64,000 nt of DNA from an uncultured Planctomycetia bacterium. Lineage in GTDB: Bacteria > Omnitrophota > Gorgyraeia > Duberdicusellales > 4484-171. A program made the position numbers and the translations under genes. The notes beneath the pieces are model-generated. The model had not been told where the DNA came from and did not search any database. It worked only from the letters and a program-made list of their open reading frames with translations. Below are positions 5,999 through 56,700 of the stretch, one piece after another; the first letter of the stretch is position 1, and each line of letters begins with the position of its first letter. The stretch covers positions 762 through 64,761 of the forward strand of contig CAZPYY010000001.1 in assembly GCA_964590995.1 (NCBI GenBank), in the 5' to 3' direction.

Positions 5999-5999
5999 C

Positions 6000-21196: not shown

Positions 21197-21225
21197 GATT
21201 ATATATAATATATCTATTACTGTCA
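21197..21225 (-). promoter_or_regulatory. consensus sigma70-type promoter TTGACA-N17-TATAAT on the minus strand immediately upstream of lysS
   Basis: minus-strand reading 21225->21197 gives ttgaca gtaatagatatattata tataat; the -10 ends only 8 nt before the lysS ATG (21188), implying a near-leaderless transcript or an internal start. Confidence 0.4.
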
Positions 21226-21248
21226 AATTAAATCCCTGCTTACCCATA

Positions 21249-22160: not shown

Positions 22161-22164
22161 TACT

Positions 22165-24002: not shown

Positions 24003-24005
24003 AGT

Positions 24006-24986: not shown

Positions 24987-25072
24987 CAGAACTCTTTAAT
25001 CTATGTAATCTTTTCTAAAATCTGAGTAATCAACGGTCTCTGGTACACCTTTAGAAGTCTTTCGGAGACCGT

Positions 25073-25375: not shown

Positions 25376-25451
25376 ATACCACCTCTCTTATTTTATCACA
25401 GTTCATCTTTTTTTCTACCCCTTATTGAGGTTTAATCTCTAATCTCTTCAC

Positions 25452-25480
25452 TGGCAAGATAAAATTTAGCTATCTTGCCA
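25452..25480. other. perfect 10-bp inverted repeat with 9-nt spacer (tggcaagata-aaatttagc-tatcttgcca) overlapping the stop codon of the PilZ gene
   Basis: seen directly; followed on the + strand by a T-rich run (aaattttctttctc); function (terminator or protein-binding palindrome) undetermined. Confidence 0.35.
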
Positions 25481-25873: not shown

Positions 25874-25901
25874 CTCTCACTTGCCCGGTTGAGGACTGTC
25901 C

Positions 25902-26417
25902 TCAACCGCTCTTCTGCCCACCCCGGGGGTGTACATTTTTGGTTTCTTTTAAAAATACACGCCCAGCTCTAGAGATGTTAAGCATATGAATTATGTAGAT
26001 GCGGATAGCTAATACTATCAATATTGTAATGCCTGTATGCGCCCACAAGCCAAACCATGAATCGGTTACTAGAAGTTTCTTTACTGAGATTGAGTATATT
26101 GGCCACCAAATATTTATTATAGGTATAGTAAATAAATTCCACCAAGCTAAAATAATAGCTAATGTTCTAGCGAAATTAAATCTTAATAGAAGCAGAAGAA
26201 TTCCGATAAAGAAAGTAATTACACTTAGCATCGCTAAATAATTACGATAAGCATCTAAAAGGAAATAGATTTCTGAAGGTGTAGACTCCATTGTAGTTAC
26301 TCCTATGAGTAATTCCCAAACACCTGAAATTAAGTGGAAAATTGCTATTGCTACAACATGACAATTTGCCCGGTTTTTTGATAATTGTTTTGTCATCTTC
26401 TTTTTCTTTTTATTCAT
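25902..26417 (-). CDS. small integral membrane protein (4 predicted TM helices), translationally coupled to the giant gene
   Basis: 171 aa; poly-Lys N-terminus; four hydrophobic helices; GGAGGG Shine-Dalgarno sits in the 15-bp gap after the giant ORF stop (26433). Confidence 0.5.
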   Translation of the reverse strand: MNKKKKKMTKQLSKNRANCHVVAIAIFHLISGVWELLIGVTTMESTPSEIYFLLDAYRNYLAMLSVITFFIGILLLLLRFNFARTLAIILAWWNLFTIPIINIWWPIYSISVKKLLVTDSWFGLWAHTGITILIVLAIRIYIIHMLNISRAGRVFLKETKNVHPRGGQKSG

Positions 26418-26432: not shown

Positions 26433-26760
26433 TTAATATTTAGGTATCGACGGTATATGTATCGGTGGTGGAGTATACACTGGCGGCATATCAATATTCA
26501 CAGGGAATTGCGGCTTAAATGGGTCTCTGTAATTAGGTGTCGGCGGTATATACACTGGTGGTGGATTATATACCGGCGGCGTATAATGATTATTCATCAT
26601 CTGCTGATATACCGGATTCGTTTTTATCTCCGGCGGAGGGTTGTAAATTCTGTTTATGTTTGGAAATTGGCGCATAGTGTTAGGGCCACGGTAATTCCTA
26701 ATAGTATCTATTAGCGGTGTTTTTGGTACATTAAACTGTTGTAAATCCCGCTGAAGCTGT
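26433..26760 (-). repeat. coding low-complexity Pro/Tyr-rich tail (PPVY/NPPP repeats) at the C-terminus of the giant protein
   Basis: protein ends ...YTPPVYNPPPVYIPPTPNYRDPFKPQFPVNIDMPPVYTPPPIHIPSIPKY; DNA shows reiterated ggcggtata[tc]ac units. Confidence 0.7.
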
Positions 26761-32700: not shown

Positions 32701-35700
32701 GGCACACTGCTATCTGCTTCTCTGATAACCTTATCTATTTCTTCTAAGCTCAATAATTTAAATACATCTTGAAGAGAAATCTTCTCTTTTATGTGAATAT
32801 CTCCCTCATCAATAAGGCCATGTTGAATCGCAACACTAACTAAAATGAAAATTACTGCCACCTTTGTGCCGTCTCTTAGTTCGCTTCTCCACTTAAGTGA
32901 ATCAACCTTAAATATGTCTAAAGTCGTTTCATCTCCTACAACAAAATATAGCGTTTTTTCATCTTTGTTGTATCGAATCGCCACAATTGGATTGCCAGAC
33001 CAAATTGCCTGTTCAAAAGGTTGATTATCTTGAGTTAGGTACTGCAAAAGTGTAGTGCCATCTTTTGCTTCTAACTGCATTTTCTCAATAAATCTTCCTT
33101 GATCCATCTTATTCTTAACAAAATACAAACCTCCCCCATCCTCGCTAACTTGGAAAGTAAAGACCATATCTGGCGACTGTAAGTGTATAATACCCTCCTC
33201 TGTACTTGTAGGATCTATAATCTCAACAAAACCTGCTTCTTTTAACATTTTTAAATAGTCTCTCTTTGTTTGCTGCTCTTCCGCGCTTACCGGCGAGCTG
33301 GAAATTGAAGAACTGCTAGTGAGGAAACGCGGTAAAATATCTGCTAACGAAACATTCTCAATGTTTTTGACATCTCTCAATATCCTTTTAAGTTCTTCGG
33401 CGCCATCTCTTCCTCTTCGAAAACTGGTCCAGATCACAGCCTCCCAAAATATAGGGTCAGGCTTTCTCTCTAAAAATTCTACAAAATTTTTAAGGCTACC
33501 TTGATCCCAACTAATAACTGCTAGATGTCCTAATCCATGGTATCCTTCACCAATCATAGTTTTTATCCTGTCAAATAGAAGTTGGATTGCCTCTTTACCA
33601 AAATTATTTTTAAGCCTCCCTAAAAATAAACTGGCCTCTAGAACGAGACTCTGAACATGAAAGTCTTTGGAATGATCATGTAGTAGTATTACAAAGTTGA
33701 CATCTCTATGAGAAAGTATTTCTTTTAGTCCTGCCAATTCTAAGGAACCTGCTTTGAACTTCTTTATATCAATAGCTCCCTCATTAACAAGTTCTCTGAC
33801 TTTTTCTTCAATATTGTTAACAGCGGAATTGGATTCCTTTATAGGCGAGCTGGAGCCAACAAACGAAGGATAAAGGAAAGAAGAAGCTGCCTTTTCATTT
33901 ATCAACATAGAATTAAGCTCCGAAATAAGGTTGTCTACTATAAAATCGATAAATTCTTCAATGGCATGTTCCAGCGACTCGGCGACTGTGGTAAATGCGG
34001 GATTAACATTTTTATCTCTTAGGATCTTAATTGTCTTTCTTATATCCTCTATTATTTTTTCATTTATTATCTTTTCTATCTCTTCAGCAGGAGTGTCAAT
34101 AATGTTAAGAAATTCATAATGGGCGGTTATCTTATGAAACTTATCACCTATACAGGCAAAGAAATCAGCGTCAAAATCTAAAAATATAGGCCTTGTTTCA
34201 TCTTTAAAATCAGGAAGGCCATCCAGATGCACAACATGCATCTTGACTTTCCTTAGTCTTATCAATTCTGCCCCTTGCGGTATACGCAAGTTCCCATCTG
34301 CCTGAGGATGCTCACGGCCAAAATAGCAGTATTTACGCCCATCTTTTAGCTTAAACATAGCTGCATACACACCAAATTCTTCGTCGATACCTAATGCATA
34401 TCCTTGGGGATATACCTGCCATATTTCATCAATCAAATCATATAAAACACCTGCGAAAATATAGCAGTCTTCAGCGTAAGTAATACTTTTTGCTTCTTTA
34501 ACGGTCTTGGGTTGCGGTAAAATACGCAGAGGCGCGCCAGCATCTTCATGGGCGTCAATATGAATAAGTATTGCCCCCATAATACCTTTAAGAATCCGCA
34601 ACATTTCCCAATATTTATAAGCTTCGCCATGGTATTTTATCCTGGCGAATTTATTTTTAAGGGCGTTATTTACCGGCGAGCTGGAAGAATCTTCTCCTCT
34701 TATCCAACTTTTTAGTTCTTCTTTTGAAACTTTACCATAAAGTTCTTTTATCGAGCTTATTTGCTGTAATATAACTGAAGGATCGATGCCCTTCTCATTT
34801 TTAAGGAGGACAACTCCGGGGTATCGTGTCAATTGCGCTTCTCTACCTTCCTGTTTAAGTAAAGCGCACACTCTTCTTTCATGAGATGGTACCGTGCGAA
34901 AAACAAGCCATTCTTCAATCGGGCTACTCGAGACGCAATTCCTCAGGCTTTGTACTTTCGAGGCCGAATTACACTCATTGCCAGCAACTGGCGAATCATA
35001 ACCAAAGGCCGCAAGAGAGCTGGAAGAAGCATTGGGAGCTTCGGGCTGGTACAATTCCGGAAAGAATTCTTTGAGCTTGCCGGAGAATTCCTGATGCATT
35101 AATTGCAGGAATTCCGCAAGCTCATATCTGGAATAGGTTCTGCCTAGTTTATATAACTCTAAGCGCAGACTAGTAAGTTCGTCTATTTCCTCCAGCATCC
35201 TGTCATTGACCAGGGCGTTAAGGAAGCTGAAACGCAAGGAACGTGCGTAATTCATAGTATAAGGAATATTATTTGTCACCCAGAGCGCTTTGTAAAGTTC
35301 AACCGGATGCTCCAGAAGCATTTCGAAAAAAGTAGTTTTGTTAAGCCCTGTTTGGTCGAATCCCTCGTGATTGATGTTTGAAATTGCCTTCATTATCCGG
35401 TTAATCCACAAATTATTACGCCACAACCTGCTAAATGTACCTCTGAAGTCTTGGGGAATCTTATCAAGGTCCGGCCTAAATAGGAATGCTGTCGCTAATA
35501 CATCAAATTTACCTTGAACGAACCTTTTGTTAATTCTAGCACCGCGTAAGTAAGGGTTAGACAACGGTCCCGCCTCCTGCGGAAGCCTTAATACCTTAAG
35601 GTCCATCAAATCTTCTATATGCACACTTTCTGCGACAATAAATATTGCCTCTTTATCATCATAAGGATAAAATTCGATGTCCCCAACTCTTTTTCTATAA

Positions 35701-38700
35701 AGAATATCACCCTCTGTTACGCCTTCGGCATCTTCAATGGAAATAGCCCGGTCCCGCCATCCTTCAAAATGCTCAATTGTCGCCATTTCTTCTTCTGTCC
35801 TGATATCGGCTTTAGGCCAATCCGGATGGCCCAAAATAATCTTTCTCATATCAAACAACAGATCCGGTAAAAAAGAAATAATGGCTGTTGTATTCTTTAA
35901 GTTAAATGTGATATTCTCAACGCTACAGCCCGAGAATATCTTGGCCAACAACTCCCGCCAAGTCTGGCAAAGATTAAAGGTAAGGGCCTTGTTGCCAATC
36001 AGGTTATTTGCCCGTTTAAGCAAGCTGGTAAGTAAATCCTGAGTGGCGGAATCAAGTGCATACCCGGCCAATAAATCCTCGTGGGTTAACCTCTCAAACG
36101 CCGGCGCCGAGGAAGCACCAGAATCACCTTTCGTAGGCGAGCTGGAAGAATCAGCTCTTAGCTCGTAGCTGGTAGCTAGTAGCTGAAAACTATCCGCTAC
36201 AGGCGATGAGCTATTATCTAGCAGTGAGCTGGAGCGGGGGGAAACGAAAGACGAGGTATGAGAGACGAGGGATGAAGACGCGATACGCGAATCTTCCCCC
36301 GGTGAGGCGGCGGAGACGTTAGAGTAATGGTTACTACCCTTACGATTAATATACTGAATCATATCTTTCGCCCATGAGAATATTCTAATGAACAATAGTG
36401 GCTGCTCAGACTCTTTAGTTATCATATTAATAAGAGGTTTATTATCAAGGCATACTCGCACCAAGGCCTGATGTGTTCTTACCAGTTCATAGATAGTGCT
36501 TTTAAATTTTTCACTTCTGACATATGCCTCTTTAGCAAAGATTGTTTTTTTAGGACCTTTTTTTCGTTCTCTGTATTCATCTTTATAAATCCACTCAAGT
36601 GGCAGATACATTTCTGCCCAATTTCCTTTAGCTAAACGCTGTAAATTTTGCATTGTAAAACCAATCTTAGTGATTATGCAATTATCTAAATGCCCGCCGG
36701 CAATGATTAATCTTTGTCCCTTAGATAAATCAACCCTCCAATCTTTTACATGAATAAGGTTAACATTAGGCAATCTTGATTTTAGATAAGAATATCTTTC
36801 CTTAATAGGCATAATGCTGAAATATTGAATATTTGGGAAGTGGTATTGAGCGGAAATTGAATCGGTACGCTTTGTAGCGAAAGAATTGGGTTCTTCACCT
36901 ACCGGCGAGCTGGAGTCAATTGCTCCTTCCTCTCTCAAAGTGTTGACTACGCTATACAACCATGAGTTGATGACGAATAGTCTTGCAATAATACTTGCGA
37001 TATCATTTTCACAATCATATCTTCTAAAGTAATCTTTCAACAATCCCTCTATTTTGGCGCGTTCAATGGCTGTATCGATGACTGTTATTTCTTCGGCCGG
37101 TATGGTCTGTTTAGGATATTCTTTAAGCGAAATCTTATAACTATAAGCAGGTTTTCTTGTAACTTTTTCCCTGTCTTCTTCATCTAGCGCTTGCCTGGAG
37201 AAGATAGCGATAGAGCGTTTCTCCAGTGCAAGTTCTGATTGCGGATACTTTCCGACAAAAACTAATTTGTCTACTAATTTTCTTAATACTTCGTAGTTTT
37301 CCAGCATAAACTCTGATGTAGATAGACCTTCTTTAAAATTAAGTACGCTAAATTGTAAGTTGCCATCCTTATCAGCCGTTAGCCCGTTCTCCATGACCTC
37401 TCTCCTTGCCGATCTGGAGATATTTACCCATAGCGTTGGATGGAATAGCCTTCTCCCACATTGTTCAATCACAAACCTCAATCGCCTCTCAATGAAGTGC
37501 GGTATGTTTTCGTGTGATTTATAACTCTTTATCTCATCGGGTGGCGTACTAAGAATATCTTCTTTAGCTAAGAAGTCATGCATTCTTACTATATTTTTTG
37601 CGCGCGGGAGATTGAACTTCGTAGTTGCGCCAATTATATAGATAAAAGAGGCTGCTCTCTGGATGGGGTCACTAGTATAAATTCCAAAATACGGATTGCT
37701 TGATATGAGGATATGTTCTTCGTAGTCATAATTTATAACTGCGGCTAAGAATCTTTCAAACGGAGCAACGGGCAACAGTCCTTTTCTTGCCATCCCTTCC
37801 AAATGATCTGCCATTTCAGCAAAACCATTATCTCTCAGATACTTAATTGCCATCTGTAGGTCTTCATCTTTCGGCCCTTTTCTATGCAACTGGTCAAACT
37901 CCTTACCAATACCTTCCAAAATACCCTCCAAATCTCTGCCGATTTCTTTTCTAGCCGGCCTTGGGATGCCTGGCATCGCTCTGACTATATCCTCTCCCTG
38001 CCCGTCCGGCAAGCGGGTCCCTTCGGCGGAGGAGGAAGAGGAGGAATTATTTGTCTTTGCAATTTCCTTCAGCACATTCAAAATCTCCTGCCGCAGCGAT
38101 GTGCGACTAAGTTTATTGTCTATGGCGGGCGAGCTGGAAGATTTTCCTTTCAAATCCAGAATCTCCCGTAAAAGATTCCTTTTAACCTGTGCATACAGTT
38201 CCAGTAATACTGGTGCTGTGCACAGCTTCTTGGAACCCCTGTGTATCAAAGATTCCTCAAAGTCAGGGATATCTTTTTTATGAAGGGCATGTGTGGGATT
38301 TAGAAATGCAGACATTAAGAATGTCTTGTTATTTATTCCAGAAAAATAACGTACCAAATGCGAAAGTACTGATTGATCACTCACTAATATTATATCTGCC
38401 TGCTCTACCGCGTCTGCTCTAACAATCTCTATATTATGGAATTTATAAAACCGAGCAAGCCTCTCTCGCATAGCCACATAACCCCGGCAGTAAGAAATAA
38501 TTTTAGTAATAAACTTACAGGAAGACTTTTCTGCTCTAAGCGTTGTACCCGCAGAGAATATTTCTATGCCCATTCTATCCAATGGATCTTGGAGCACTAA
38601 TTCAAGCAATGGACTGCGAAAGACATTAACAGTACATACAACACGAATGCGCTTAATTTGTTTAATTCCTCTGGCTATAAAGATATTCTCGACTGAACGC

Positions 38701-41700
38701 TTAAGCGGCGATGAAGAAGCGGCTTCGCGGACAAATACTTCCAAATAAGCATTTTCTGTCTCAAATGATGTCTCCTGAAGATTAACGGAAAATATTTCCT
38801 TGCCTACAACCCTGAAACCCTGAGATTCTAATAAATCAACGCTTTTGCGGAAGAAAGGCTTGACCACAATCAGGGTATCAGCTTTGATTTTCTTTGATAT
38901 CTGTTTAGAGTTTATTACTTCTAACAATTCTATTAACACCTCATGCTCTGGATTAACCAATAAAATATGGCTCAAGCTATGGCCGGGAATAAATTTTATT
39001 ATATTTGTATCTGTCCTGACAACCGCCAGGTTGTCCAGGTCGACTCTTTGCGCGGCAAGCAAACCCTTTTCCCACATCTGCGCCCACATTATATAAATAT
39101 AATCCAGCGAAAAATATGATTCGTAGATATCCGTGGCAATAACTCCTACATCAGGATTCCTTTCGGCAATAGTTTTTGCGGTTTTGGCTGTTCCACAGCC
39201 AATCTCTAGAATAATCCCCTTACCGCGAAATCCCTCAACAACAAAGTTAACTTTTGTAATATTCTGCCTACTGTTTTTCTTCTGCCTCAAATAACCTTGC
39301 AATCCCGCATATTCAGCGGAAATTGAATCAGTAAACTTTGTAGTGAGAGAATTAGGTTCTTTGCCCACCGGCGAACTGGCCTCAAAAAGCGCCTGGCCCC
39401 TTGAGGCGGTAGTTTTGTAGTCTGGAGTTATATCAGTGACGCAGGGATGAAAAGGCTGTTTAGGAGTTTGAGCTTCGGGTTTCCCTAAAAACATATAGCC
39501 TCTCAGCGCACTTTTCAACATAACTGTCTTAACTTGTGATAGTTCCTGCATTATTTCTGGTATGCACTCTTTGGCCGCATCTATCATAGTTGGAAAAATA
39601 TTACATATTATAAAGCCTCTTTCGGAAAGCAATCCTGCTAAATCAACAATATGGTTTGTAAATTTTCCTTCCCTCACTAAATGGTATAAGCCTAAATAAC
39701 TGTAAATAATATCTAATGTTATAGGACCGATAAATCTTTGAATGTTTTCTACTAGATTCTCGACTACGCCAACAATAAACAGAATATTATCGGGTATCTC
39801 TTTTTTTGCTATAGATAGGCTATATGTATCGCTGAAGGCAATAATAAAGACATTATTGATTCCTTTGTCGTTCAACCATTGGGCCAACTCTATTGGAGCT
39901 GTCAAATCTCCTGCCCCCCAATCTAGTACAAATACTGGTTTGGATGGCTTAGATTTAGCTATCTTAACTATCCAATCATCACGTAATGACCAACCGAGCA
40001 TATAGTTAGAAAAGTCATAATCTATAACTTGAAAAGGAGTGTCGAAGGCCCTCCACCCCCCCTCTTTCACCCACACCCATAGCTCACCACTGGAACTTAT
40101 GCGCACCCTTGGCGTCTTTTTCGCTGTTAAAAGCTTCTCTATCTCTTCCTGAGGCAAGTCTGGTTCAAACACGATACGCCTATTAGCCTTAAATCTAGCC
40201 CACGCTTCGTCTAAACTGAGAAGTGAAGACGAAGCACATTTTTCTGTCGCTATTGCCAGTTTAGCCGCCAAATGAAGTTTTTTAATGGCAGAAGACGCAC
40301 CTCGTTTACTCCTTTTTTTTGTCTCTCCATAATCCTGGTCGCCAGGACGTATTCGTAGCGCGCTCCATGTCGCCACATTTTCATTTTCACCGACTCTCAC
40401 GCAATTGGGCTCAATTTCAAAACCAGAGTGCTGGATAAACTCCTGATGCGCTTTAACAACTTCTTTCTCCTGCCATAAGTCAATTGCGTAATACTTATAA
40501 TGGCCGCCGGCAATAAATAACTGTATTTCGGGTATAAGCCTCAATAGATACATGCTGCTCATGTTGGTTACATCGTACTCATCTTCCCATTCGCCAATAT
40601 TTGAGAACACGGCAATCTTACGGCCCCTGCGGTTAATGATTTTAGCGCATGAGCCGAGAAAGTCCTTATCGGAAATATCGCCCAGATGAGACCGGTAGTC
40701 TTTTCCTTCCGCAAACCCATTGAGCCTCAGCTGTGTTCCAGCCTGTTTAAGTCTTTCCGGAAAGAGCTCTATGATATCGGCAAATTTCAATCCGAGCTTA
40801 AAGCCCGCAAGCGTCAAAATAGCGTCTCCTGCACCGACATCTATACCGTCATAACCATCCAAGCCTCGCTCCATCATATGAATAATCATAGCTGTCGTGT
40901 TTGCCGCGTATCCTTTCTGCGCTAAATCTTTTTGGCTGAGGCTGTTGACTAATATAACATTGGCGCTTAACTCTTTTTTTAGGATTTGGTCTAACCTTTC
41001 ATAACAATAACTATCCATAAAAAATAAATAAGCGATACGGATAACGATAATTTTTTGTTCTCCGCGAACCTCAATCAGGCCGTCTTCTCTATAAAACCTC
41101 TTCTCCCCATAAATATAGTAAGGCTGCCATTTACTAAACCCATCCCATCGCCGTAACACAAGATTTAGCTGTTCGGCAATTTTTTGGCTCAATTGTTCTG
41201 CGTAAGCCTCATCGAACCTTTCGGCTTCTTTATCTGCGGGCGAGCTGGAGAGAAGACTGCCCAGAGAAAACCCTCCTTTTAGACGCCCGAGCTCGCCACC
41301 ATCGTATCGGAATGGATAGAACTCTCCGGTTGTGCTACTCAATTTAACATTTCCACACCATTGTTCACCTCTTGCATGCCAAAGTAATGGTATATTTTCT
41401 TCTTCTAAGGCCGCCAATATAGCTTGTGCATTTTCTTCATTCGAAATCTCAATTTCCTCAATATGCTCCGGTGATACCTCAGGTTGCACCAATATTGCCC
41501 GCAAGATTTCTTTCTGTATAAACGGAAGGGGTGTCAGAATTCTTAAAACCTCCTGGATGCATCCTTGAGCAACGCTCGCAGGTGAGAGGAAAGTATATTG
41601 ATAGGTCTGGGAAGCTTTCAGATGAGCCAAGACAAAGACTTTTCTGTTGATATCAAAAAGAATGAGATAATTACAGTCTATTGCTCCCTCTGATTCTAAC

Positions 41701-44700
41701 TCTCTCTTGCTTCTGTCGCCTCGGACAAGGATTCCGAATTCATCGCGCCGTAATATTGCGGCGGGGCCTTTGGGGTCAATTAGACAATCAACTGAATTTC
41801 CTGAGATTCTTAATCGATATTTTACCGCAGTAATCTTTTTTACATCATCCACAGGCGAGCTGGAGAAAACTGAGTCATTGTTATACGCGGCAATTAATCC
41901 TCGAATTACATCTACCACATCTTCATCTTCTGAGGCCTTTGGCTCACCAAACAAGTCTACGAATATATCCAGACCAAATTCATCAACTATATCACTAAGA
42001 TTTAACTTAACTATGTCTATGATCTTTTCTCGATAGATATTTAATCCGAGATTGCTTGATTTCAATATATCCCGTAAAGACAAGAGCCGCTGAAGCACTT
42101 CTTTCTTAAAATCCTTCCTTCGTTTACTGAATAATTTTAAGAAAATATCCTCTATCTGATGAGAGGTCCGTTCTTTTCTTAAATAGTTTATGAGTAAACG
42201 TAACCCTGATACACTAGCAATATCGCGGGCAGTATCTAATTCCTTTTGTTTAAGTTCAGGGATCATTCTCCACAATTCCTGCTTCACCTTATTTATTCTG
42301 GTAAGAGCACGGCCGGGAGAGCGGCTAAGTCCATAAACCCATAAGTTGCGAATGCGCTGTTTTATCGAACTTTTATAGTAGTTATAGATTTCATAATCAT
42401 CATCCAATAAACTTAATTCATAATCGCTGAGTGGCCCCCAAAAAGAAGAAACATACCGCTTTTCTGACTTTCTAAACCAAAGGGCGAATTCCTCGTCTAA
42501 GTCGGATTCTAAAGAAGTACACCTGATGACCAAACCGTCTTTGATAATAATCCTTACTCTCTCATTAGGATGCCTGCGAAATCTCGCCCATGACCTTATT
42601 CTTGCTCGCCTTAAGCCATTGACTAAAGGTCTGGCACCGCCCAAACGAAGACTTCCGTTGCTGTCTAAAAAACCGTAGGTAGTAACATCTTTAAGTTTAG
42701 CGAATTTCTCCGGCCTTATTCTCCCCCTATAAACATCGATAACCCTCCCTGTTTTATTATCTATAATAGGGAAAAATTCAAACATTGAACAATCATTCAA
42801 AAAGAATATTCTCATAGGCATCCCATTATAGATTTCCAGCTCATACTCTGTATTGCAATAGCCTTTAAATTGAAACGGGCCCATTTTCTTTCCCAAACTT
42901 ACCCGCGCCCTGCTATTGGTTTTACCCCTTACTACTATATGCCCAAACTGCACTCTCTTTTTGTATCGAAGAGGGAGGTCTTCCTTATTTATATAAACCT
43001 GACCGGTCAATTTACCCTCAAAAGAATGAGCAAGAATCTGACGCCACATACCTTTTCTTATTTTTAGGTCCCTATCAGTCTCTGAGGCGATACCGCCTTT
43101 GCTTTCAGGCCTTAGTTGCTTCTGCATCGCAATTATTGTTTTATTCTCTGGGCCTCGAGCCTTAAAATCATCTACAGTGCAAATAGGACCGTTTCGTAAC
43201 TCATTTACATCCACAGGCGAGCTGGAGGAAACTGTATATCTCAACAACGTATCATAGCTCTGCAGTAACGCTGTTTTTGCCTTTTTTTCTACGTCCCCAT
43301 CCCATGCTCGGCAAGGCCTTAGGCTTTGGGCGATTTCATCGCAATAAAATGGCAATATATCTTGAGCGGATTTCAAGAATAACCCTCCAAAAGTAAATTG
43401 TCTGCCTGGGTCAAAATTCTTTATGCGCTGATTATCAATACCGTAATTGAACGCCTTTAATATATCGATGCTTATAAATCCTTGAGAAAGTATATCTCCG
43501 ATAGCCCCAATGAATTTCATAGCCAGGGGCTTTCTCTCGGCTAAGGGATAAGAGGTTAATTCGCTCTCTAATTCTGCAACTTTCTGCTGAATCACTATAT
43601 CAAAACCGGCTAAGCGTGTTAGTTGTGTATTTACCAAACGGTCTGCATACATACTCTGGGCATTGCGATAACTATTTCTTATTGGTCGGGCCCAATGCTT
43701 CTTTATCGGCTTCACAACGATTTTCTTACCTATATATACACGCGCTGTATGTTTAAACTTAGGATTATACAGGACACCGAATCCCAATTCTCTCATCCAG
43801 TCTGTAACATCTAAAATTGAAGCTTTCGTTGTATCTCTCTGAGTACTACATAGTTGTTTTATTAGTCTCATTTCTTCGCTGAGAAAACATTTTGCTACAG
43901 GCGAGGAGGAAGTTCTTTCCTCAACATCTTCTTTATTCTTATTGCTTTTATAGTCTTCTTTAATTAAATGGTCAAATAAAAGATTCAAGAAAGTCCATGC
44001 GCCCCAACCTAATACAATCTTTACTACGCCCCAATTGAAATTCATTACTATCTTTCCTGCGCCTACCATTAGAAAAGATGCTATTGCGGCAAAAACAGAA
44101 AAGAAACCATTAAATCCAAAAAAATCTTTAATAAAAATCTTTAATGGTACGCTAGCTTGAGTTTTTAACCTATTGCTTCTAGCAGTATCAGCAAGATATA
44201 AAGAAACGGCTATTGCGATGCAGCCTAATATTAAAGAATATCTCAGAATCTCGCCAGACAACACATTTCCCACAGGCGAGCTGGAGTGGACTCGATAAAA
44301 ACTGTTTTTAGGAAACACATAGTTATACATTCCCTGAATTCCGCCACTTAAGCGCTCAGAATATGGGAAACAATTAGGAAAACATTCTGCCATTGTGTCA
44401 GCAGCGTGAGTTGTTTCATCAATTATAAGATAACCTAATGGTTTCAGTAGTTCTTTGGCTTTATCTAGCCATTCTTTCGGCCTGCCAAAAATCCTTCTTC
44501 CACCTACAAAATCAATGAATGTCACAAGGTCGAAACTGTGTGGTTTTAAACCATATTGCTTGATATCAAAAACGCCTATTTCGCTATGGACGAACCTAAT
44601 CTTAAGGTCTAATATTAAGTCCTGTTTCTTTAAACTATTGGAAATAGCTATTGCGTACGCTTCAACGAGCTGAGTTTTGCCCTCATCTACATCTACGAAA

Positions 44701-47700
44701 GTAATATCCTTACCCACTAATGTCAGCAAATGGGGAAAGATCAATAATCCATCTCCGACTACCATAATCTTCTCGATACGAGGCTCCAAGGATGGATCTA
44801 AGATAAGAGAAACTAATTTTTTCGAATAGTATAAATCTTTTTCAAAACCTTCTTGATATTTTTTCATAAAGAATGTATATGCTTCTCCCAGAGTCATATT
44901 CCGTTGCATCGGAGAACTGGAAGAAATAATTCCATTAAGGACTTTGAGCGAGGAATTACTTTGAGCAAACCCGGCATAAGCAGAAAGGCCCCAGTGCCTG
45001 AACAACTCTTTTCGTCCCGGGCATTTATTCTTCACGCCCGCGCAGTCAAGGTCACAATTGAAACATTCAATAGGCTCCTTTGCTATCGGGCCCAACCCCT
45101 CAACAGTCTCATACCTGCGAAGCATAATTCCTTCTTTGGGTTTTATGCCGCGAATAGCTTGACCGTCAGGAAGGATAGAGTACTTAACGAACTTATCGAT
45201 ATCTTCATTCGAAAGTTTGTCACCAGCCTCTATACGGCCTGAAGGGTAAAATAGACCCTTTTCTCCCAACTGCCAAAATCTTCCGCAGTTCTTTATGGAT
45301 TTTTTCTCAAACTCTATTAAATAAAGCATCTTCTTTGACTCAAGGACTTCCAGTATATCCTGGCACAAATTGGTAGGATCACTAATGCGTCTAAATAAAA
45401 ATACTTTATATTTACTGGGAAGTAAATTCTCTTGTGCCAATTTAATAATATGCGCTATATGCTCAGCATATTTCTTAATCCCCAATCTGCGCATCCAGGC
45501 ATTCGGAGCAATGCTCAAAGTCAAGCTTACGACTACACCTCCTCTTTTTAGTGCTTTTATAAAGGCGCGCTCAGCCACAGAGCCGCGCTCAAATCCAGAG
45601 GTATGAACCTCGCCTACAGGAGACAGCTTCAAGATATTACTACTGTCTTTATCATAAACAAAGTCATAGTAGTCTCTGAAATAATCTCCCCTGAAAAGCT
45701 GAACAAAGTTAAAGCGGACACTGCTTTTCCTAAGAATAAACTCTAACTGCTCAAGCCATATCCAGGGAAAAGGGCTTACCCGAATAGTGGTTGCGCCGTC
45801 ACAATGGTCGCACTGGGTAGAACATCCCCAGGTAGCTATGGCAGGGGCTCCTTGGTTTCTGAATGAGAGTTTGTAGTCCTCTTTTCTTCTTCCCTCAAAT
45901 AAAGGAATAAACCAATCAGAGGCAGGCTCTATAAGTGCGTTAAGATTTGCGATTTGGGTTTCGATATCGGCTTTATTATGTTGCTTTTTTATTGATTTTA
46001 TGCGTCCTCTCCCTATTTTTGATAGTGGCACTTGATAATGCTCAATCATCTCTATCCTTGCCTTAATCGCCGCTTTAATAAAAGATAAATAATCAACAAA
46101 TTCCTGGGGATTCTCCTCCCTACGCAGGCCTCTTTGGATAGCAGCATTTGTGGCAGCGGCTTCCTTTATAAACTCCTGATATTCGAATATCTGTTTCTCC
46201 CAATCCAAATATAAATAAGAATAATTACCTCTCTGGCATTGTTTTAGTCTCCATCTTGCCATCTCTTCCAATGGCAAAGATTGTCGTACGGAACGTTTCC
46301 CGCCGTCTTGATCAACTACGCTTGATGAGGATGAAGAATCCTTATTTTTTTTGCGAGCGGGCCTATACCTAAAGGCCATGGATTCGTAAGTCGTATGCGG
46401 CTCTTGCTTCAAGGGCACAGAATCAACATCACTGAGACCAGATAACAAACTCTTGCTTTTGCCTGCTGGTTCTGTCTCTCGGGCAGGAAAATCCCTGTAC
46501 CCAAGTAATGCTAATATCTCACTCATATCATCGGGATGCAGATTCATCGTGCCGTTTGGAATATGCTCAGGAAAACTTACCTCTATCTTGCTGCCGTTCC
46601 TTCTTCTGATATCATCGGCAAAGAAATCAGCCAACAGATTAATAAGCTGCTGACGCGGAGCCTTCAAGTTTCCGTTAAGAGACATAAAATCAAGTTGAAA
46701 ACAATGGGAATGTTTTATGCGTATCCCGCCGCCGGGGATTTCTTCCAATAAAGGGTACATCGCGCGATAGACAACTTCCGTATAGAATTGCGAGATGTTT
46801 TCAATTTCGTCTAAAACGCCGAAAGCGCTTAACTCTTCTCTCTCTCCATCAAGAAGTTTCAGATAGATTTTTGTGCCCTCATTTTCCTTTATCTCTTTGG
46901 CAATATCACAAAGAAGTTCAAAGGGCCTTGTATGAAGGCGCCACTTAGCCTGAAAAATAATGGAGCTATAAACCGGACTGCTGCTTGTCTCTGAAGCAGC
47001 ATGTCCTGAAACAAAGCTATCGTCTAAAGAATATAATAATCCTGCTCCTGACTGCCAAAATGCGTCAAAACCATCAAGGCGCAAATCACAAAAAATGCCG
47101 CGCTTTCTTAGTTGACATAGCAACTCATGCGTTAAATAACCCCGGACAGTCAAAAGAGTACCGGCAGGGCTAATACAATCTGTGATGCGGCCGATAACCT
47201 CCGGTATATCTATCCTATTACTATTGATAATTGATGAATAATTAGTTAATACAAGGTGATTAAATTGTTTATTTTGCGGGAATGATATCTTATCAACAGA
47301 TGCCTGTCTAAAAGTTACCTTACCTCCTGACTCTCTAATCTCTTTTTGGAATATACAGCCAAGCATCATAAGCTCCTGCGATAGCCGTCCATCCTTATCG
47401 CTATCTACCACCGTAACCTGCATACCCATGAGAGCATCAGCCAAAAACAACATATTTCTTCTGTTAGCAAGATGCAGTGAATGATGATTGCATAGATTGT
47501 CTTCCTCTTTTTGAGCCATTATTTCAAAGAGTAATGCTGTTCGTTTGCGGATTATTGCGCGGTATCTACCCTCAATATAAACCGGCTGATCGGCGAGAAT
47601 AACATCTAATATGCTGTCGGCGTAATCATAAGGCTTATAAGAAATAATCGAACTTGATGATAAAACCGGACCTGAAGGCCTGAAGAAATGCCCTGATGTT

Positions 47701-50700
47701 CCGTCTGGCTCAAAGCCTAGCTGCCGGCCATACTCTATCCAGGCATCAAAAGCTCCCCTGGTCTTTCCGCGGTATTGGGGAATTATTAAGATATCATTAT
47801 TTTCACCGAAATTAGCAACAAATTCTGAGAATAAGATCCTACCTAACCGTTTATCACATAATTTCTTATCCCGCTCGATTGTATGAATAAATAGGTATTT
47901 TAAACCGAGCTCTTGTTCTTCATAAGCCAATAATATCGCCAGAGGCTCATAGGGGCTGCCGATATAATAAAGAATAACCGGTTTTCGTAGTAGAAACTTC
48001 CACCTGATGTGCTTCCGGTCATCATCTGTCATGACGAACTTTCTATCTCCGGTTTCTTCCCAGGCCCGCAATACAGCTATAACCTGATTCTTCTTTGTTA
48101 CGGTAACTATCGGTAAATGAGCACCGCTCTCATACAACTTTATCCCTGAAGAAGCGGTGTCTATACCAATCAGCTTTTTAATAAATTCATCAATAAATTC
48201 TTCATATTTTTCTTCGCCCAAATCATATTTTTCTAAAATCTCATGCATTCTTTCTTTCAATGATTCAATACGCCTAAAGTCTTCTGTGGAACCAGATAAG
48301 TCCAAGAATAAATCCCGATATTCTCTCTTTTCCCGATCAGCCAATTGCTCCCAGAGCTCATCAAGTATGGATAATACCTTATTCTTCTTGCCGTCTACGG
48401 AAGGAATATTATTGAATACGTTGATATAGCCTAAAGCGCGCCGCACAATATCATCCATGCCAGCATCTTTGCCTAAGCTATTTTTCGCTGCCTCAAACAT
48501 AATCCCGGCATAAAAATCTCCCTTAAGATGAAGCTTTCCGATAGGCTCAAATTTAAAACCGTACTGCACTTCTATCTCTAACAGAGCCTGTTCGAATATA
48601 CCATTATCTTGTTCAACTGTTATATATTCAGCGGCGGAAGATTTAGCGCTCCTGACCTGCTCTTTACCCAGATTAAACATTTCATACTTGAAGTTAGCTG
48701 CAGTCTCTCCCCAGACGGCTGATAAATCGCTGTTGCGAAATGCATCAAGACCCCAGCGCTTAGTTAACATCAGGGTAAATACGGCTTCGGAGATATATAC
48801 AAAGGCGTCGTCCGCTATCGTTACAATTTTATGTTGTGGTAATATATTGAAAATATATTGCGAAACCAAAGCGGATATTATAGCCGGGTTAAGCCGGCGG
48901 CTGAGGAATAAAACAACCAAGCCCCCTCGGTCACTTAAAACGCCTAATAGTTCTCCGGCTAAAGAAGACAAAACCAGGTCTCTTCTGTCAAAATCATCTA
49001 AAACGCTGCCTAAGGTATAAGGTTTAACTATAATTTGACTTGCCAGTAGTTCTCTTTCGTTTACTGATAGGTTTTTTCCAAAAACGTCAAGTACAAACAC
49101 AGAATCTTCTAAAATATACGTTTTCTGCTGAGAGCTGAATTCCTTATCTACAGCAAAATAGATACAGTTTAATGTGTAAGAATCAATCTTTTGTTTTCCA
49201 GCAATTTCAGGAAATCTTTCCAGGTCATAAATAATTGCTTCCGCTATCTGCCCGCTATGTAGATATAGTGTATGAAACTCATCCGGTTCAAGATCGCCAG
49301 CGCCAAACAACAATTTACCGAATGAATCAATGAATTCTTCGAGGTTAAAAGATACACGCTTAGTTGCTGTCTCAATATCGATATTTCCGTTAATAATTAA
49401 GCCTTTGCTGTTTCGGTAGTCATTACCACCTTTGATGGACGACGAAGATTGGCAATGGTTTTCGTCTTTCTTCTTGAAAGTGATATTTCGTGACCTGGTC
49501 TCTCCGGCTATATTCTTATAAATAACTCTGAAAATCTGCTTGGGGAGATTCATAATCTCTTCATGAAGAATACGATAACGCTCGGTATTTTCATAAATCA
49601 TTATATGTCTCTTAAATTCATCATTATCCTTAAACAATTCAAGATAATGTTTTTGAGTCTCACCGTAGCGCTTCTTAAACCAGTTCGCCAGATGCCTTTT
49701 GCCGCCTTTTCCGTCCGGCATCCAGTGTTTTGGCCTGCCTAAATCATCAGTAGTCAATACGTGGAGCTCATTTTTACTCCTGGCGCATTTCATTAAGTAT
49801 TTACCTTCCCGGGTATTATCACCGGCATATTCGATTTCGATTCTATTTTTTGTTATAAAAAGCATAATTCCAAAGATATCCTGGATGAATTGGGCAATAT
49901 CTTCTCTTAACTTATGAGGGACACATTGCCTAAAATAATACTGTTTAGGGGTAAAAGTTATAAGGTGAAGTAAGTATCGCTTTGCGCCGCGAATATCATT
50001 GTCGCTAATGAATTGATTGACTGTCAGGGATCTTTGGAGGGCTCCTAAGCTGTCATAATCAGGCCTAAACTCAAGGAGGGCTTCCACAAATTCAATCACT
50101 TGGGGATAAGGAAGCTGAAGTTTAATCTTCACCAGTAGCGGAGGCACTCTCACTCTACGGATATAGTAAATATCATGGTATTTAATGATTTTCTCGGTCA
50201 ATTTTAATTTCTTATTCTTAAGCAACCATTCTCCAAACCCACTATCAGCATCAAGCATAGCATAATCTCTGCTGCTAAGAGTAACTCTTGGTTTCTTGGG
50301 TGAAATCTTCCTTCTGTGATCATCTAACTTTTTAGCGGCAATACGCTCAATGCTGCCCCGTTGACCCTTTAGGGTATTGAGCCTCTCACCCAAGGCTTTT
50401 CTAACTGACTGCGATCTTTTAACAACATTTAAATTCCCCTGTTTGAGAAGTTCTTTAATCTCTTTTAATCCGGGAATTACCCTCTTTACCTTTGTGTCAT
50501 CAGTTTGCCTGCCTTGCGCTGTGGTGATAATTATTGACTTGCCAATCTTAGGCCTGGCAATTATACTGTCTATAAGATCTATAACAGCTGATATTTCTTT
50601 ATCAACCTCGCCAAAGAACAATTGTATCTGCTGGCGGGGACGAGACTTTTTTAACTGGCGTATTCTTTCAATGATATCGTCCATGTCCTTTATACATTCA

Positions 50701-53700
50701 ATAATTATACCTATCTCCTCATTTATATCTTCCACTTTATGAAATTCCTGCCTCAACTCATCAGGCAGCAACGCGATATCTTTTTCTTTCAAATCCAATA
50801 AGGCAATAAAGTCTTTATACCTGCTTAGAGAACCGCCTTGATTACTTACCGAAGAAGAAATGGAAGAACTGCTTTCATTATTCTCATTCAATCGCCGTGC
50901 ATTTCCTTTAAGCCTATCAAGATGGTCTTTTGCACCGCCAAGCTCAAGGCCGTAATATTTCCTTAATACTTCCAGCGTTTGCCCCGCATCACGAATAACC
51001 CTTGCCCTATCATCACACTTGTTTAAGGTCATTTCTATGTATGACATGAAATCTCTCTCTATCCTATCTTCCAGCCATGTTTTAAACCTCTGCAATGCCC
51101 CCCGCTGGTATGACCTCTGATCCTTTCTTCCTTCAAAAAACCGGTTGATAGTCACTTCGCTAAAACCAAAAATGGAAGCAAGGACTAAATAACTCACCTC
51201 ATCAAACAATCTCATCTTTACGAACTCAACCATATCACTCTCGGTTAAATTATCGAAGCGAAGCGAGCTGGCGCGCCGCAGAATTACTTCCATTACTTCA
51301 TTTTTTGTGTCTTCTAACTCTCCGCATAAATATCTAAACCCTGAAGTTAAGTAAAACTGAACAACTAAGCTTATCAGCTTATCGTATACCCCGGACTCCT
51401 TAGCGTTACCGGCAAACTCAAGTGCAGCCACGCGCAGCTGCTTGGTAAGATTACTGCGCGACATCCCCAACATATTGGCTATTTCTTGACGGGTATGGTC
51501 AGGATACTTATGTATTGCCTCAATAATTCTCTTTCTTTTCCAGGCATGCTTTGATGTCATATCCCAATTTTTAAGCACTGTTTTTACTAACCTGCGGACA
51601 GGCTGATGATTTGAATCCAGAGCGAATCTCATCATATCTTCAGAGATTTTCCGAGTAAGTTTTGCCCGCAAAGCCTGCTTAAGCGTATCGGGTGCAGCCC
51701 TATAAAGCCGCCTATAGGCCCCTCTGGTTATCTTTGGTTGAGTCCATCTTCCTAAAAGAACCCTTGTTATATAAGAAGGATGGACTTGATGCTGTTTTGC
51801 CAGAACCTCATCAAGCGCTTGCACTGAGATTGCTTTGTTGCGTTGCGCATAGAGAAGAACTTCTGTCTCCCGGTCGTCCAAAACCATATCACGGCGCGCC
51901 TGGCGTATTAAGGCGTCAAGTTCTCGCTCAAGCGCGTTCATTAAGTGCAGGAACCATTTTCTTTGAGGAGACAACCGTGGTGTGTAAGTATTCTTTTCTA
52001 TCGGGGATGAAGCTCCTACAACAGGAAACCCCGCCTGAATAGCAAGAGCTATGTTATTGCTACGGCTTTTCGCTTTAACTGAGTTAATCGAAGAACTGGA
52101 ATGCCTGTCTAAATCTTCTTCTCTCATGCCCATAAGCTGGCAAGCTAGACATATCTGGGCTGATTTTTTTATGTGCTCTCTGGCCTTTGTAAATGCATCT
52201 CCTGCGGCAACAAAGCTTAATCGCTTAACAACAAGCTCAAATGGATAATCATATTCCCACATTGAATAAAACCGTATCATATCTTTTAACGAGGGGAAAT
52301 AATTCCTTTCTTCTAAATCCAGAAATTTAGCTACCAAATTGTCCTCTATCATTACAAACCGTATATCCGAAAGCATAATATCACTCACCACTAGACCTTT
52401 ATATTTACCCAGACTGAAACTCTCCAGCCAAGCCCTGATTAAACTCGTGGCTTCCAAAGACTGTAATCTTATTTCAATATCGGCCTCTTTGACTCCTCTA
52501 TCCCTCAAAATACTCTCCATATCTTCCCTGGTAAATTCCTCGATAACTTCCTCTATATAAACCGCTTTTGCCCTTTCAAAAGAAATATATTCAAAAGGCT
52601 GGGGAACAGGCGAGTACTCCTGAAACCTGTCATAAAAGTGGCTGGCAATCTCAAACCTTTCTTCTACGCCATAACGAATGCCTGTTTCACCGGAAAGTAT
52701 CTTCACAATTACCTCGCCATACTCAGGGTGCCGGGCAAGATATACAGAGGCGTTCTTACCCTGATGACCCGTCATGTGGGATATATCGATACCTTTTTCT
52801 TCTTTCAATTTACCCAATATAATCTTCTCTATTTCCGAAACGTAACCAATGCTGCTGCTTGAGCTGAGACCATGCGAGAAAGTAGCGGTTACCGGCGAAA
52901 GCGCTTTCAGATTAGTCAAAAAATAATAAAGTTTTGGTTCTCCTGCTGAATTAATAACTGAGCTATTTAGCTGCCGTGCTTGAGCCCTATGATGCGTACC
53001 GGTCGCAATTGGGCTGCTGGAGTCAACATTTTTCTTTGCAGCAGCACGCTCTAAAATAATTCTTTTCGCCTCTTCAATAGAATCAGTTACCTGATAAAGC
53101 GATACATCATCAGCATTAACCGCTTTTAAAGGAATCATTACCGCGCGAATCCAATCATCCAACTCACCCCAGAACTCACGCCCTATAAGAATAATTGGCA
53201 CTGGCTTAATCTTGCCAGTTTGGATAAGACAGAGCGTCTCAAAAAGCATATCAAGGGTATCAATACCTCCGGGAAAGAATATTAAACCTAAACTGCTGTG
53301 TCGTTGCATAGCAGTTTTTAACGCAATATGACTCTGAAAACAAAAGCCTCTATCGCCGGGTAGCTGTCTCCTGATATGTTTTCCTTCATACATCGTAATA
53401 AACCACCCCATTTCTAAATTAGCTTTTTGCTCCAAATGCTGATATGCCTTGCCTATTGCTTTCGCTATACTTTCTTCACCGCGACGCATGATTAAAATAC
53501 GTTCATTATTAAGCGAAATAGATAGCTCATGCGCCATCAGCGAGAATTTACTGGTAGTATCAACCAATCTGCCACCAAGAATAGAAACAGCAGGACCTAA
53601 GCGGCTCAATATGCGCGTGGCTCTGAACAACTCGCTGATAAAAACTCTGATATCAATGCCTCGCGGCTCAATCTGTCTGACTCTCAAATATGCGTCAAGA

Positions 53701-56700
53701 TGTTGATAAGCTTCCTTCTCTGTATGTTTAAGATGAACCAGTAATGCTTTTGGCGAAGGCATTAATCCTAACGCATGTGCTCTGTAGAGAAATTGCATAA
53801 ATCGATCATAGAAATCTTCATTAATTAAAACCAGTGGCTTTTGATTTCCAGAATTTCTTAGATTAAACGAAAGAAGCTCACCAATCTCATCCAGGGTACC
53901 AAACCCACCAGGAAAGGCTGACCCACCCAGACTCTTAAAAATAAACATTGCTTTACGTGTGAAAAAATAGTTAAAAATATTCGTTATGTCTTGATATTTA
54001 TTCGATAGTTGTTCATGAGGAAGATTGATACATAAACCAACTGAATTAATAAACTCACGCAAATTCTTATCAACGCTAAGCGCACCTTCGTTTGCTGCGC
54101 GCATAATCCCCGGACCGCCACCAGTAACTACCGAATATCCACCCCGCACTGCTCTCTTACCAAAACGAACAGCTTCTTTATAAAAATGATGGTGGGACTT
54201 GAATCGTGCCGAGCCAAAAGCAAAGAGAGCTGGCCCTAATTCTATGAGCGCACTCTTAGACGCTAGCCATTCATTGATAGTTTGTTCAAAGAATCTCTCT
54301 GAAAGTATGTTGTCGCCTCTTTTATTCCTACTGGATACCGGGCTGCTGGCCTTGTTCTGATTCAACAAGAACATTGAACTGGAAGATTTCTTTTTCCTTC
54401 TTGAACTCTTTTTCTTCTTTTGTGATTTCGCGGAAACAAGATCATGCGTTAATACACGGGAAATATCAATTTCGTTTTTATCGACTCCTTTGGCTTTAAC
54501 TGACCCGCGTATGACACCGTAATGAATAATCTTAATCACTTTTGCGAATGCTCTCTCAAAAGAATAAGAAAAATCCTCTGGCTCTACGGTAAACGCCGCT
54601 GCCAGCATCTTTGCCAGGAACAAGTTACTGTCTTTTATCTCGACAGTAGTCATTACCCTTAATATCTGCTTTAATCTCATTAAAGCAAATTCATTAGTAG
54701 AAAATACTCTTACAACTTCATCTTTTATCCTATCAACATACAATCTTCCTATTTGGCTATCATCTAAACTATCAAGATATTCGTCAAAACCAAGAAGGTA
54801 ATGCCCTAAATGATAAGGAGGTTGATCAGGATACCTTTTACGTACATCTTCCTTTAGAAATTTAATTATTTCTTCTCGTGGTAAGCCTTGAGCTAGCAAT
54901 TCAATAAGCTGGTTAAACGAAGACAAGAAAGCTCCACCGTCGTTTTCATCTTGTAACTTGCCCGCAAACGGGCTGCTGGAATGGTTAAAATAATTATTGC
55001 AACACCTGAGAGCATCATTAAAAATTTCCGCGATGATGTGGTGGGAAAAGTGTTCTCTGCCTATTCTTATATTATGCTCTATTATTCTCTTTCTAAAATC
55101 GGCATCATCAATTATCCTCACCATAAGCATGATAGCTTTCTTTGAAACTGTATCAGTATGAGAGAAAAATGATTTTCTATCAATCAGCGGCAGTTTAATT
55201 ACCTCATCTTCATCAATTTCCATGGTTTCTATAGCCCATAACCCTTTCGCACGTATATCAATTACCCACACCGGGTGAGGATAAACAACAAATGGCCTCT
55301 GATAATAAGCAGCCTCTATCTTAGCATTGCAAAAACCCTCTTGATACGATGGTATTATTATAAGGTCAGCTGCTTCATGTACCTCCCGCAGGCTAAAAGG
55401 TCCAAAGGTTCCCTCAACAGACATTACAAGATTGACCCTCTTCTCTTTGGCAAAACGCTCTAACAGTAACATATAACCTATACCTTCGTCTGTCGCCGGA
55501 TGGGTAATAATGAGGTGCATTCGCCGGTGCGGATATTGCTGCTGCAATTGAGCGGCAATCTCAATGGCCAGTTCTAAATTCTTGCGCCTAATAATTCTAA
55601 GCGGCGCGATCAACAATATGTCATCGGGATGAATATTATGAAATGCCCTGAATGCCTCTCCTGACCTTCTGTTCATGTGCGGTAAATTCTCGAAATCCCT
55701 TGCGTTAGGAGCTATGGCTACCCGCGTATCATATTTATTAAACATCGTTAACTCCTGATACGAATTAATAACTACCGTATAGAGGTCTTCGATCCCGCCA
55801 TAACTTCTACCACCCGCGATCTTATTCAGCCGCCCTGTGACCTTCTCGTTATCGGTCTCGTATTGCTCACGTTCCCACCAGTAATCATGATTGTGGGTAA
55901 TGGTAAAAATAGTCTTATCTTTCATTTCATGTTTTAATTCATTCATAATCTCAACCACCGCGAGCGACAATGCAATATTTACCGGAAGCGACAACACATT
56001 CTCCGGAATGACAAAATCTATGTCATTAGATATAATGAATTTCTTCAATCTTGACTTTATACAATCTTTTAAAAGATGGAATTTATCGATTACCTCATCA
56101 AGTTCCTGATTGAGCTTTCTCTGTTCAGTTTCTTCCTCAATGCTAAGGCCTTCTCTTTTCTGTTTCTCCTCAAGCTTATCTAACTGCTTAGCCAGACTGA
56201 ACAATTGTCCTGTTAATTCTTCAATCTCTTTATTCTTAAAATGGCAGAGAGAATCAACACTCATCCCATCAGCAATATCACTAACGCCGTCAACCTCACC
56301 GGCATAGAAATATACCTCTGCCCCACCCTTCTTGCACACCTTTGCCCACTCTATTAATTCATAGGTAACGCCGTCGCGCGCTTTCTTGCTTATGCGAAAC
56401 GATAAAAACAAAAATCTTTTACCGGCAGCCAGGCTCCTAAGTTGTTTAAATATTTCGCCTTTTTTACCTAATAACTCAAGAGTTGAAATAGCCTTATCAG
56501 CGTTAGTTTGCGGCTCTTCTATAGCCGAACTGCTGGATTCTTCACCATTGTGCTCTCTTATTAATGTTGTTGCAATCGGGCTGCTGGAATCTTTGTCCGG
56601 GCTAGGTAATGTCTTTAATCTCTGCTCTATATCCTCTAATTGTTCATCTAGCCAAAGATGAAAATTATACGAATTAGTGAATTCATCAATAAAATCAAAT

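Follow-up and report, generated by a model that had tools for sequence, protein, structure and literature searches.

What a lone CxxxCxxC triplet contributes to a protein of many thousand residues is the question raised by a stretch of DNA assigned to Omnitrophota. This stretch (64,000 nucleotides of contig CAZPYY010000001.1, assembly GCA_964590995.1; hereafter the window) carries on its minus strand a giant open reading frame (ORF), and an earlier reading made from the letters alone (the sequence-only reading) had proposed that positions 45300-45850 encode a radical S-adenosylmethionine (SAM)-like module marked by the motif CSTQCDHC. That proposal is supported here by conservation across relatives, by recurrent weak matches to the radical-SAM profile PF04055 and by two structure searches. 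Residues ~5897-6355 of the giant protein probably constitute a self-contained and highly divergent member of the radical-SAM superfamily, as judged from sequence comparison and a structural model, and the module would represent a divergent new family within that superfamily rather than a member of any named subfamily. The span first proposed fits the predicted barrel core (residues ~6049-6233), the whole module being larger (~44925-46301).

The cysteine triplet and its family

The giant ORF encodes ATWGCSTQCDHCDG at residues 6052-6065 on the minus strand, with the codons of C6056 at 45824-45822, of C6060 at 45812-45810 and of C6063 at 45803-45801 (in-window numbering). The CxxxCxxC motif is unique in the whole giant chain, where 0.008 occurrences would be expected by chance (109 Cys, 0.87%), and its three Cys are invariant in 41/41 aligned relatives (alignment A2; mean column identity 20%). 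In radical-SAM enzymes the residue before the third cluster Cys is usually aromatic; in the present family that place is taken by H, F, Y or W in almost all relatives and by I or C in a few, the window protein having His. A hydrophobic strand ending in T-x-G-C precedes the motif. The motif thus seen by the sequence-only reading has the features that mark the superfamily, namely three Cys with a His or aromatic residue ahead of the third, and binding of a cluster is predicted. The Gly-rich stretch said to follow it was not found, since the next 60 residues hold 2 Gly against 3.6 expected from the composition of the protein. Two relatives depart from the usual form: P0025 has CX4CX2C spacing (WGCEILHCDFC), and in P0030 the second Cys is replaced by Trp (WGCSVQWDYC), perhaps because this copy is degenerate or its sequence contains an error.

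With residues 5900-6360 as the query, a search retrieved a fragment from another giant protein (83% identity), eight stand-alone proteins between 457 and 563 aa long (78-99% query cover, 31-40% identity) and a 355-aa Saganbacteria protein; the relatives carry no Pfam domain and are all named 'hypothetical protein'. When 1.84 billion representative proteins were searched exhaustively with a profile, 64 members were obtained at E<=1e-3, 27 of them at E<=1e-30, many being embedded in proteins of 2,000-6,500 aa and others standing alone (280-560 aa), and a word-indexed protein search with A2 (41 sequences) added one further named relative, again called 'hypothetical protein'. When the GTDB species genomes were scanned with the smaller alignment A1 (11 sequences), nine loci were obtained, six labelled Candidatus Omnitrophota (one a single-cell genome), two Planctomycetia/Planctomycetales and one Desulfobacteraceae; four of the loci are free-standing genes, and in the other five the module is part of an open frame whose length ranges from at least 799 to at least 2,743 aa. 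Given that both embedded and free copies occur among these loci, the module is a discrete evolutionary unit that exists fused as well as free. The closest relative of the window module, at 83% identity, sits on a 2.4 kb contig binned as Desulfobacteraceae (L009, JABMRH010000251.1), which is probably mis-binned because all other close relatives come from Omnitrophota or from other genomes labelled as Planctomycetes-Verrucomicrobia-Chlamydiae (PVC). At another locus (L008) the module is a separate 563-aa gene (6736-8427) located 95 bases downstream of an ORF (3-6641) that exceeds 2,212 aa, a layout which suggests that lineages differ in whether such units are joined to giant genes or detached from them. 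The family is a small radical-SAM family, found mainly in Omnitrophota and without a name in any source examined. The coordinates of the module, its parts and the other features of the window are collected in Table 1.

Table 1. Features of the module, of the giant ORF and of the neighbouring genes in the window (residues are those of the giant ORF).
Feature	Window position	Residues	Strand	Remarks
Complete radical-SAM-like module	44925..46301	~5897-6355	minus	Ser-run linkers on both sides; 34-42% identity to full-length stand-alone homologues (A1)
N-terminal helical domain of module	45855..46301	~5897-6045	minus	pLDDT 90-98
Predicted radical-SAM core, alternating strands and helices	45291..45845	~6049-6233	minus	Read from the model as a (beta/alpha)6 partial barrel
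CxxxCxxC motif, C6056-STQ-C6060-DH-C6063	45801..45824	6056-6063	minus	Putative [4Fe-4S] ligands
R-G-D-Y-F-R-D-Y-Y-D-F	45555..45587	6135-6145	minus	Just past predicted beta2
C-terminal Cys motif, C6309-x2-C6312-x3-C6316-x6-C6323	45021..45065	6309-6323	minus	Followed by xGR...F...GLS..GGF
Ser-run linker SSSSSS	46320..46337	5885-5890	minus	Upstream of module
Linker SSSSP	44910..44924	6356-6360	minus	Exact point where stand-alone homologues end
Downstream module, weakly class I methyltransferase-like	44286..44909	6361-6568	minus	Sub-threshold Pfam
Two hydrophobic, transmembrane-like segments	44064..44249	6581-6599 and 6624-6642	minus	After the methyltransferase-like module
Giant ORF	26433..63989		minus	12,518 aa from first in-window start codon; N-terminus beyond the window
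Trypsin-like peptidase (Trypsin_2)		~2108-2224	minus	Pfam, just under threshold
GT5 (starch-synthase type) and GT1 glycosyltransferases		N-terminal half	minus	Pfam
LOG/Lysine_decarbox		~3296-3430	minus	Pfam, E=2e-32
Winged-helix motif (wHTH)		~4152-4186	minus	Pfam
Methyltransf_4		near 8300	minus	Pfam
HEAT repeat array (PF13646, 11 stretches)	27240-30989	~11,300-12,100	minus	Pfam, E=6e-79
Opp-type ABC transporter permeases and ATPases; class II aminoacyl-tRNA synthetase (D/K/N type)	within 15358-26417		minus
FtsX/MacB-like permease with its ATPase; class IV aminotransferase; ATP:guanido phosphotransferase (McsB/arginine-kinase-like)	within 15358-26417		minus

The profile searches gave a graded picture. 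Scanned singly, 24 of the 41 relatives matched PF04055 at E<=1 (best 1.2e-5), and each of the other Pfam families that appeared was matched by one relative only. NCBIfam gave no match to the module even at E<=10, and searches of the PDB sequences returned chance-level TRAP1/Hsp75 matches with the single module sequence and nothing relevant with the A1 profile. The family profile found weak matches among the PDB sequences to YydG/EpeE (E=0.066), CysS and SkfB, and in the YydG alignment the cluster loop was in register and the DPLRDY segment lay over GGEVFLDY. At the sequence level, the window protein by itself provides weak evidence for radical-SAM identity, whereas the view across the family is much stronger.

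Predicted fold and motifs

An AlphaFold2 model built with A1 had a predicted local distance difference test (pLDDT) score of 63.5 and a disordered cluster loop, and was superseded by the model built with A2, which reached a pLDDT of 88.1 and a predicted template modelling (pTM) score of 0.87. The A2 model consists, in order, of four N-terminal helices, a strand with the Cys loop, alternating helices and strands, and a C-terminal beta-hairpin with a Cys-rich loop. Its core is consistent with a (beta/alpha)6 pattern, the barrel being deduced from the order of secondary structure together with the fold matches, and the model places the cluster loop after beta1 of a partial barrel, as in the radical-SAM fold. 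In the structure search with this model the best matches (score in brackets) were EpeE/YydG (8ai1; 10.5), viperin (5vsl; 8.5), RimO (4jc0; 8.5), MiaB (7mjv; 8.4), MgmA (9ccb; 8.3), SuiB (5v1q; 8.2), GDGT-MAS (7tom; 8.1), anSME (4k36; 7.7) and BlsE (7vob; 7.6), with SkfB, SPL, MoaA, CysS, TsrM, NifB, PFL-AE, LAM, Mmp10, HemN, BtrN and QueE lower in the list. Foldseek against the PDB likewise returned radical-SAM enzymes as all of its eleven best matches (SuiB, E=1.1e-3; viperin, probability 1.00). The fold assignment is therefore consistent across two structure searches and would make the domain an outlier within the radical-SAM superfamily; structure prediction, which had been proposed as a check in the sequence-only reading, came down on the side of that reading.

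These data bear directly on whether the Cys triplet might be incidental, or might bind zinc or form disulfides within some generic domain of TIM-barrel-like or hydrolase-like type outside the superfamily. The low-confidence A1 model could be taken in that sense, as Foldseek gave no significant match for it and returned an unspecific mix of xylanases, amylases, GDSL esterases and one radical-SAM enzyme, and non-radical-SAM alpha/beta folds, TIM barrels among them, also occur lower in the lists for the good model. Against this stand the rarity of the motif by chance and its invariance across the family, its position at the end of the first predicted core strand, which is exactly that of the radical-SAM cluster, the exclusively radical-SAM tops of both structure searches, and PF04055 as the only recurrent Pfam match. 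An incidental triplet is already disfavoured, and we regard it as very improbable.

The remaining motifs of the family fall into place along the predicted radical-SAM core. After the Cys loop there follow, in order, MPWPW; sDPLRDYYDP; (I)T(T/S)xG(F/W)..GS.GE.A; and (I)RxS(I/L)(D), an order which is that expected for beta2 to beta4 of a radical-SAM core. Where the canonical core has its GGE motif the window module has RGD-YFRDYYD instead, a segment that in alignment falls on GGE(V)FLDY, the SAM-binding motif of YydG/EpeE, and has the family consensus sDPLRDYYDP; across the family its D146 (model numbering) never varies, and D143 and Y144 hardly do. Further along, a T-S/T-G segment follows beta3 and an S-I/L-(D) segment lies on beta4, the strand that bears the ribose motif in radical-SAM enzymes, and no beta5 (GxIxGxxE) or beta6 SAM-binding motif was recognisable in the module family. 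Compared with the PF04055 core, the module shares CxxxCx(aromatic)C after the first strand, the alternating strand/helix core and, where GGE would follow beta2, an acidic motif, but differs in the change of GGE to (G/N/S)D..(R)DYYD and in motifs of its own: MPWPW and, in the N-terminal four-helix domain, Y-x-APLS-x-x-G and PPxxWF (family-wide, Y-x-(A/V)-P-L-S-x-x-G and P-x-x-x-W-F). Identity to the module is 10-13% for EpeE/YydG (8ai1), SuiB (5v1q/5v1t), anSME (4k36) and SkfB (6efn) and 11-13% for viperin (5vsl), whose nucleotide-binding C-terminal motifs were not identified in the module.

The sequence-only reading had also suggested looking downstream for SPASM or other auxiliary-cluster Cys. 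Pfam and NCBIfam gave no match of SPASM or Fer4 domains to the module even at E<=1 or E<=10, PF13186, Fer4_12 and Fer4_14 included; a downstream CxxCx3Cx6C is kept in the close subfamily, its more distant members having CxxCx3C only and the distant branches lacking it. This C-terminal motif could be a candidate auxiliary site for a second Fe-S cluster or for zinc. Assignment to the SPASM/twitch enzymes, which have CX9-15GX4C...CX2CX5CX3C...C (PF13186/TIGR04085), was rejected on the differing Cys spacing and on the lack of a model match.

Counter-evidence and alternative readings

Several results weigh against a functional radical-SAM domain. The PF04055 search, the other check proposed at the outset, gave 14.7-15.2 bits (E=0.025-0.035) for the window module over profile positions 6-151 of 166 and did not reach the gathering score of 29.5. 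The Foldseek matches against the PDB have TM-scores of 0.25-0.49 and no E-value <=1e-3. In addition, P0002-P0009, P0014, P0020 and loci L011, L014, L015 and L017, all close stand-alone homologues, begin with what resembles a Sec-type signal peptide (MKK, then 11-21 hydrophobic residues and an AxA-like site), a sequence feature that would be unexpected for an Fe-S, SAM-dependent enzyme. No twin-arginine motif was found in these N-termini, and a conserved LSPxxxIN motif follows the signal-like segment in most of them, P0002 and P0020 excepted. The distant stand-alone members P0010, P0021, P0023, P0032, P0036, P0040 and P0046 have no signal-peptide-like N-terminus.

In view of the signal-like N-termini and LSPxxxIN of the stand-alone members, one may ask whether the family works outside the cytoplasm of its producer, the stand-alone members and the giant proteins with the module being exported or delivered to a prey or host cell and carrying out radical chemistry on the envelope or cytoplasm of that cell. 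We consider this improbable. By analogy with viperin, the hydrophobic segment may be a membrane anchor instead, and the sequence of the window protein itself favours a cytoplasmic location for the module, because no hydrophobic segment lies between it and the glycosyltransferase, LOG and winged-helix modules in the in-window residues N-terminal of it (the N-terminus of the protein lies outside the window).

The same observations could be accommodated if the module were a radical-SAM-derived pseudoenzyme that kept the barrel and possibly a metal or Fe-S site and served a structural, redox-sensing or binding role, possibly outside the cytoplasm. Such a role seems unlikely, if less so than export. 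The three Cys and the aromatic/His position are kept across sequences of only ~20% identity, and the acidic DYxD at the GGE position, TSG/TTxG after beta3 and an S-x-D-like beta4 segment are conserved as well, as one would expect if selection maintained the binding of a cluster and of SAM. Departures from the canonical GGE motif are found in many genuine radical-SAM enzymes, and viperin combines a hydrophobic anchor at its N-terminus with a cytosolic radical-SAM domain.

If the module is, as we favour, an active radical-SAM enzyme, C6056, C6060 and C6063 would ligate three irons of a [4Fe-4S] cluster, SAM would chelate the fourth, and the RGD/DYYD segment that follows beta2 would stand in for GGE. 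One-electron reduction would then cleave SAM to a 5'-deoxyadenosyl radical, which would abstract a hydrogen atom from a substrate bound beneath the helical domain, where the barrel is open. By analogy with the substrates of the nearest structural neighbours, the substrate class is most likely either a peptide or protein or a nucleotide-sugar. Of these neighbours, EpeE/YydG, SuiB, anSME, SkfB and RimO modify peptides or proteins, viperin and MiaB nucleotides or RNA, and BlsE nucleoside sugars; the score differences among them are too small to choose between substrate classes. No precursor-peptide gene or RRE-type domain was found in any module context examined.

Neighbouring modules and the giant protein

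The sequence-only reading had placed methyltransferases on both sides of the module and had suggested that it may modify a peptide, RNA or cofactor substrate handled by neighbouring modules. On the upstream side this did not hold, as the module at residues 5669-5885 matches nothing. On the downstream side a weak likeness to class I methyltransferases was found, with sub-threshold Pfam matches (PF13847, E=0.004, 17 bits against a cutoff of 27; PF13489, E=0.14; PF08242, E=0.22), a degenerate motif I (VVGDGLLIF, where class I methyltransferases have GxGxG) and no methyltransferase in a PDB sequence search. Other giants have different neighbours at this place: P0012 has an ATP-grasp domain downstream of the module, P0019 a HAD domain upstream and HEAT repeats downstream, and P0029 and P0037 no recognisable module neighbour. 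P0039 is the sole case among the giants examined with a clear Methyltransf_11 immediately after the module, and this methyltransferase has no detectable similarity to the downstream module of the window. The neighbours are, in short, not conserved among giants, and cooperation with flanking methyltransferases is not supported. Nor was any precursor peptide, partner enzyme or conserved operon found in the neighbourhoods of the stand-alone homologues, of which P0005 and P0006 lie in a shared gene order with a PIN-PhoH gene and small genes of unknown function, P0010 (from a Saganbacteria metagenome-assembled genome) lies among housekeeping genes and P0002 directly follows an ORF of more than 2,212 aa. 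The contexts, within giants as well as around free genes, point to no particular substrate. An anaerobic lifestyle, which had been suggested on the strength of an oxygen-sensitive cluster, is not justified as an inference from one radical-SAM domain.

The units of the giant chain are separated by Ser-rich segments. The tetrapeptide SSSP occurs in 24 copies against 0.17 expected from composition, is followed directly by V or I in 18 of them, and is found at positions that include residues 147, 1288, 2468, 3004, 3657, 5669, 6357, 6569, 6694 ... 10837; together with other Ser runs it makes up ~38 sites that are spaced 100-1,200 residues apart and bracket the recognisable modules. SSSP has the appearance of a linker that recurs between modules, or else of a site for processing or glycosylation. 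Other giant fragments vary in this respect, with eight copies in 2,332 aa from L010, seven in P0015 and none in most. The radical-SAM module would be one of many enzyme units that such linkers fuse into one chain in this lineage, the same unit appearing in related Omnitrophota as a separate gene of ~540 aa. A reading related to that of export, and likewise improbable, is that the module acts in cis on the chain of which it is part, perhaps close to the SSSP linkers. As a separate observation, the built-in protease and the recurrent SSSP sites would fit a polyprotein-like processing scheme.

The frame of the giant ORF is uninterrupted and open to base 64000, which gives a true length of at least 12,518 aa. 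The multi-enzyme chain described by the sequence-only reading was recovered by Pfam, which found along it Trypsin_2, GT5, GT1, LOG/Lysine_decarbox, wHTH, Methyltransf_4 and 11 HEAT_2 stretches; the part with the peptidase, GT5/GT1, LOG and winged-helix domains corresponds to window positions 57240-60989 and 51240-57989 (minus strand). With more than 10,000 aa in a single ORF and many different enzyme domains, it is a multi-enzyme giant protein of the Omnitrophota type. A public protein of 6,528 aa (P0011) is identical to it in the module region and exactly matches in length window positions 26433-46019 (minus strand), so that P0011 apparently represents the last 6,528 residues of the giant protein described here; its start falls inside the radical-SAM module, which suggests that an earlier assembly or gene call of this sequence was interrupted there. 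Below the giant ORF, ordinary chromosomal genes follow on the same strand (15358-26417).

Giants of this kind have been catalogued before. PF04055 was reported in 90 of 916 long Omnitrophota proteins, co-occurring with sugar-metabolism modules (bioRxiv 10.64898/2026.06.07.730766), and is listed among frequent giant-protein domains in a supplementary figure legend (bioRxiv 10.1101/2023.11.21.568195). The present protein resembles the giants of both catalogues in being a multi-enzyme chain with GT5, GT1, methyltransferase and HEAT domains, but the catalogues are Pfam-based and the window module, being sub-threshold, would count as unannotated there. As radical-SAM domains in Omnitrophota giants have already been reported, the assignment is a useful annotation and not a new kind of system. 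What it provides is a fold and a probable chemistry for a stretch of a giant protein left blank by standard annotation, together with a family signature made up of TWGCSTQCDHC, MPWPW, DPLRDYYDP and the N-terminal APLS helical domain. The signal-like N-termini of the free forms raise the question of the site of action of an Fe-S radical enzyme in ultra-small bacteria that are putatively predatory, and the free ~540-aa gene form offers a tractable stand-alone protein with which one function of these otherwise intractable giants can be studied.

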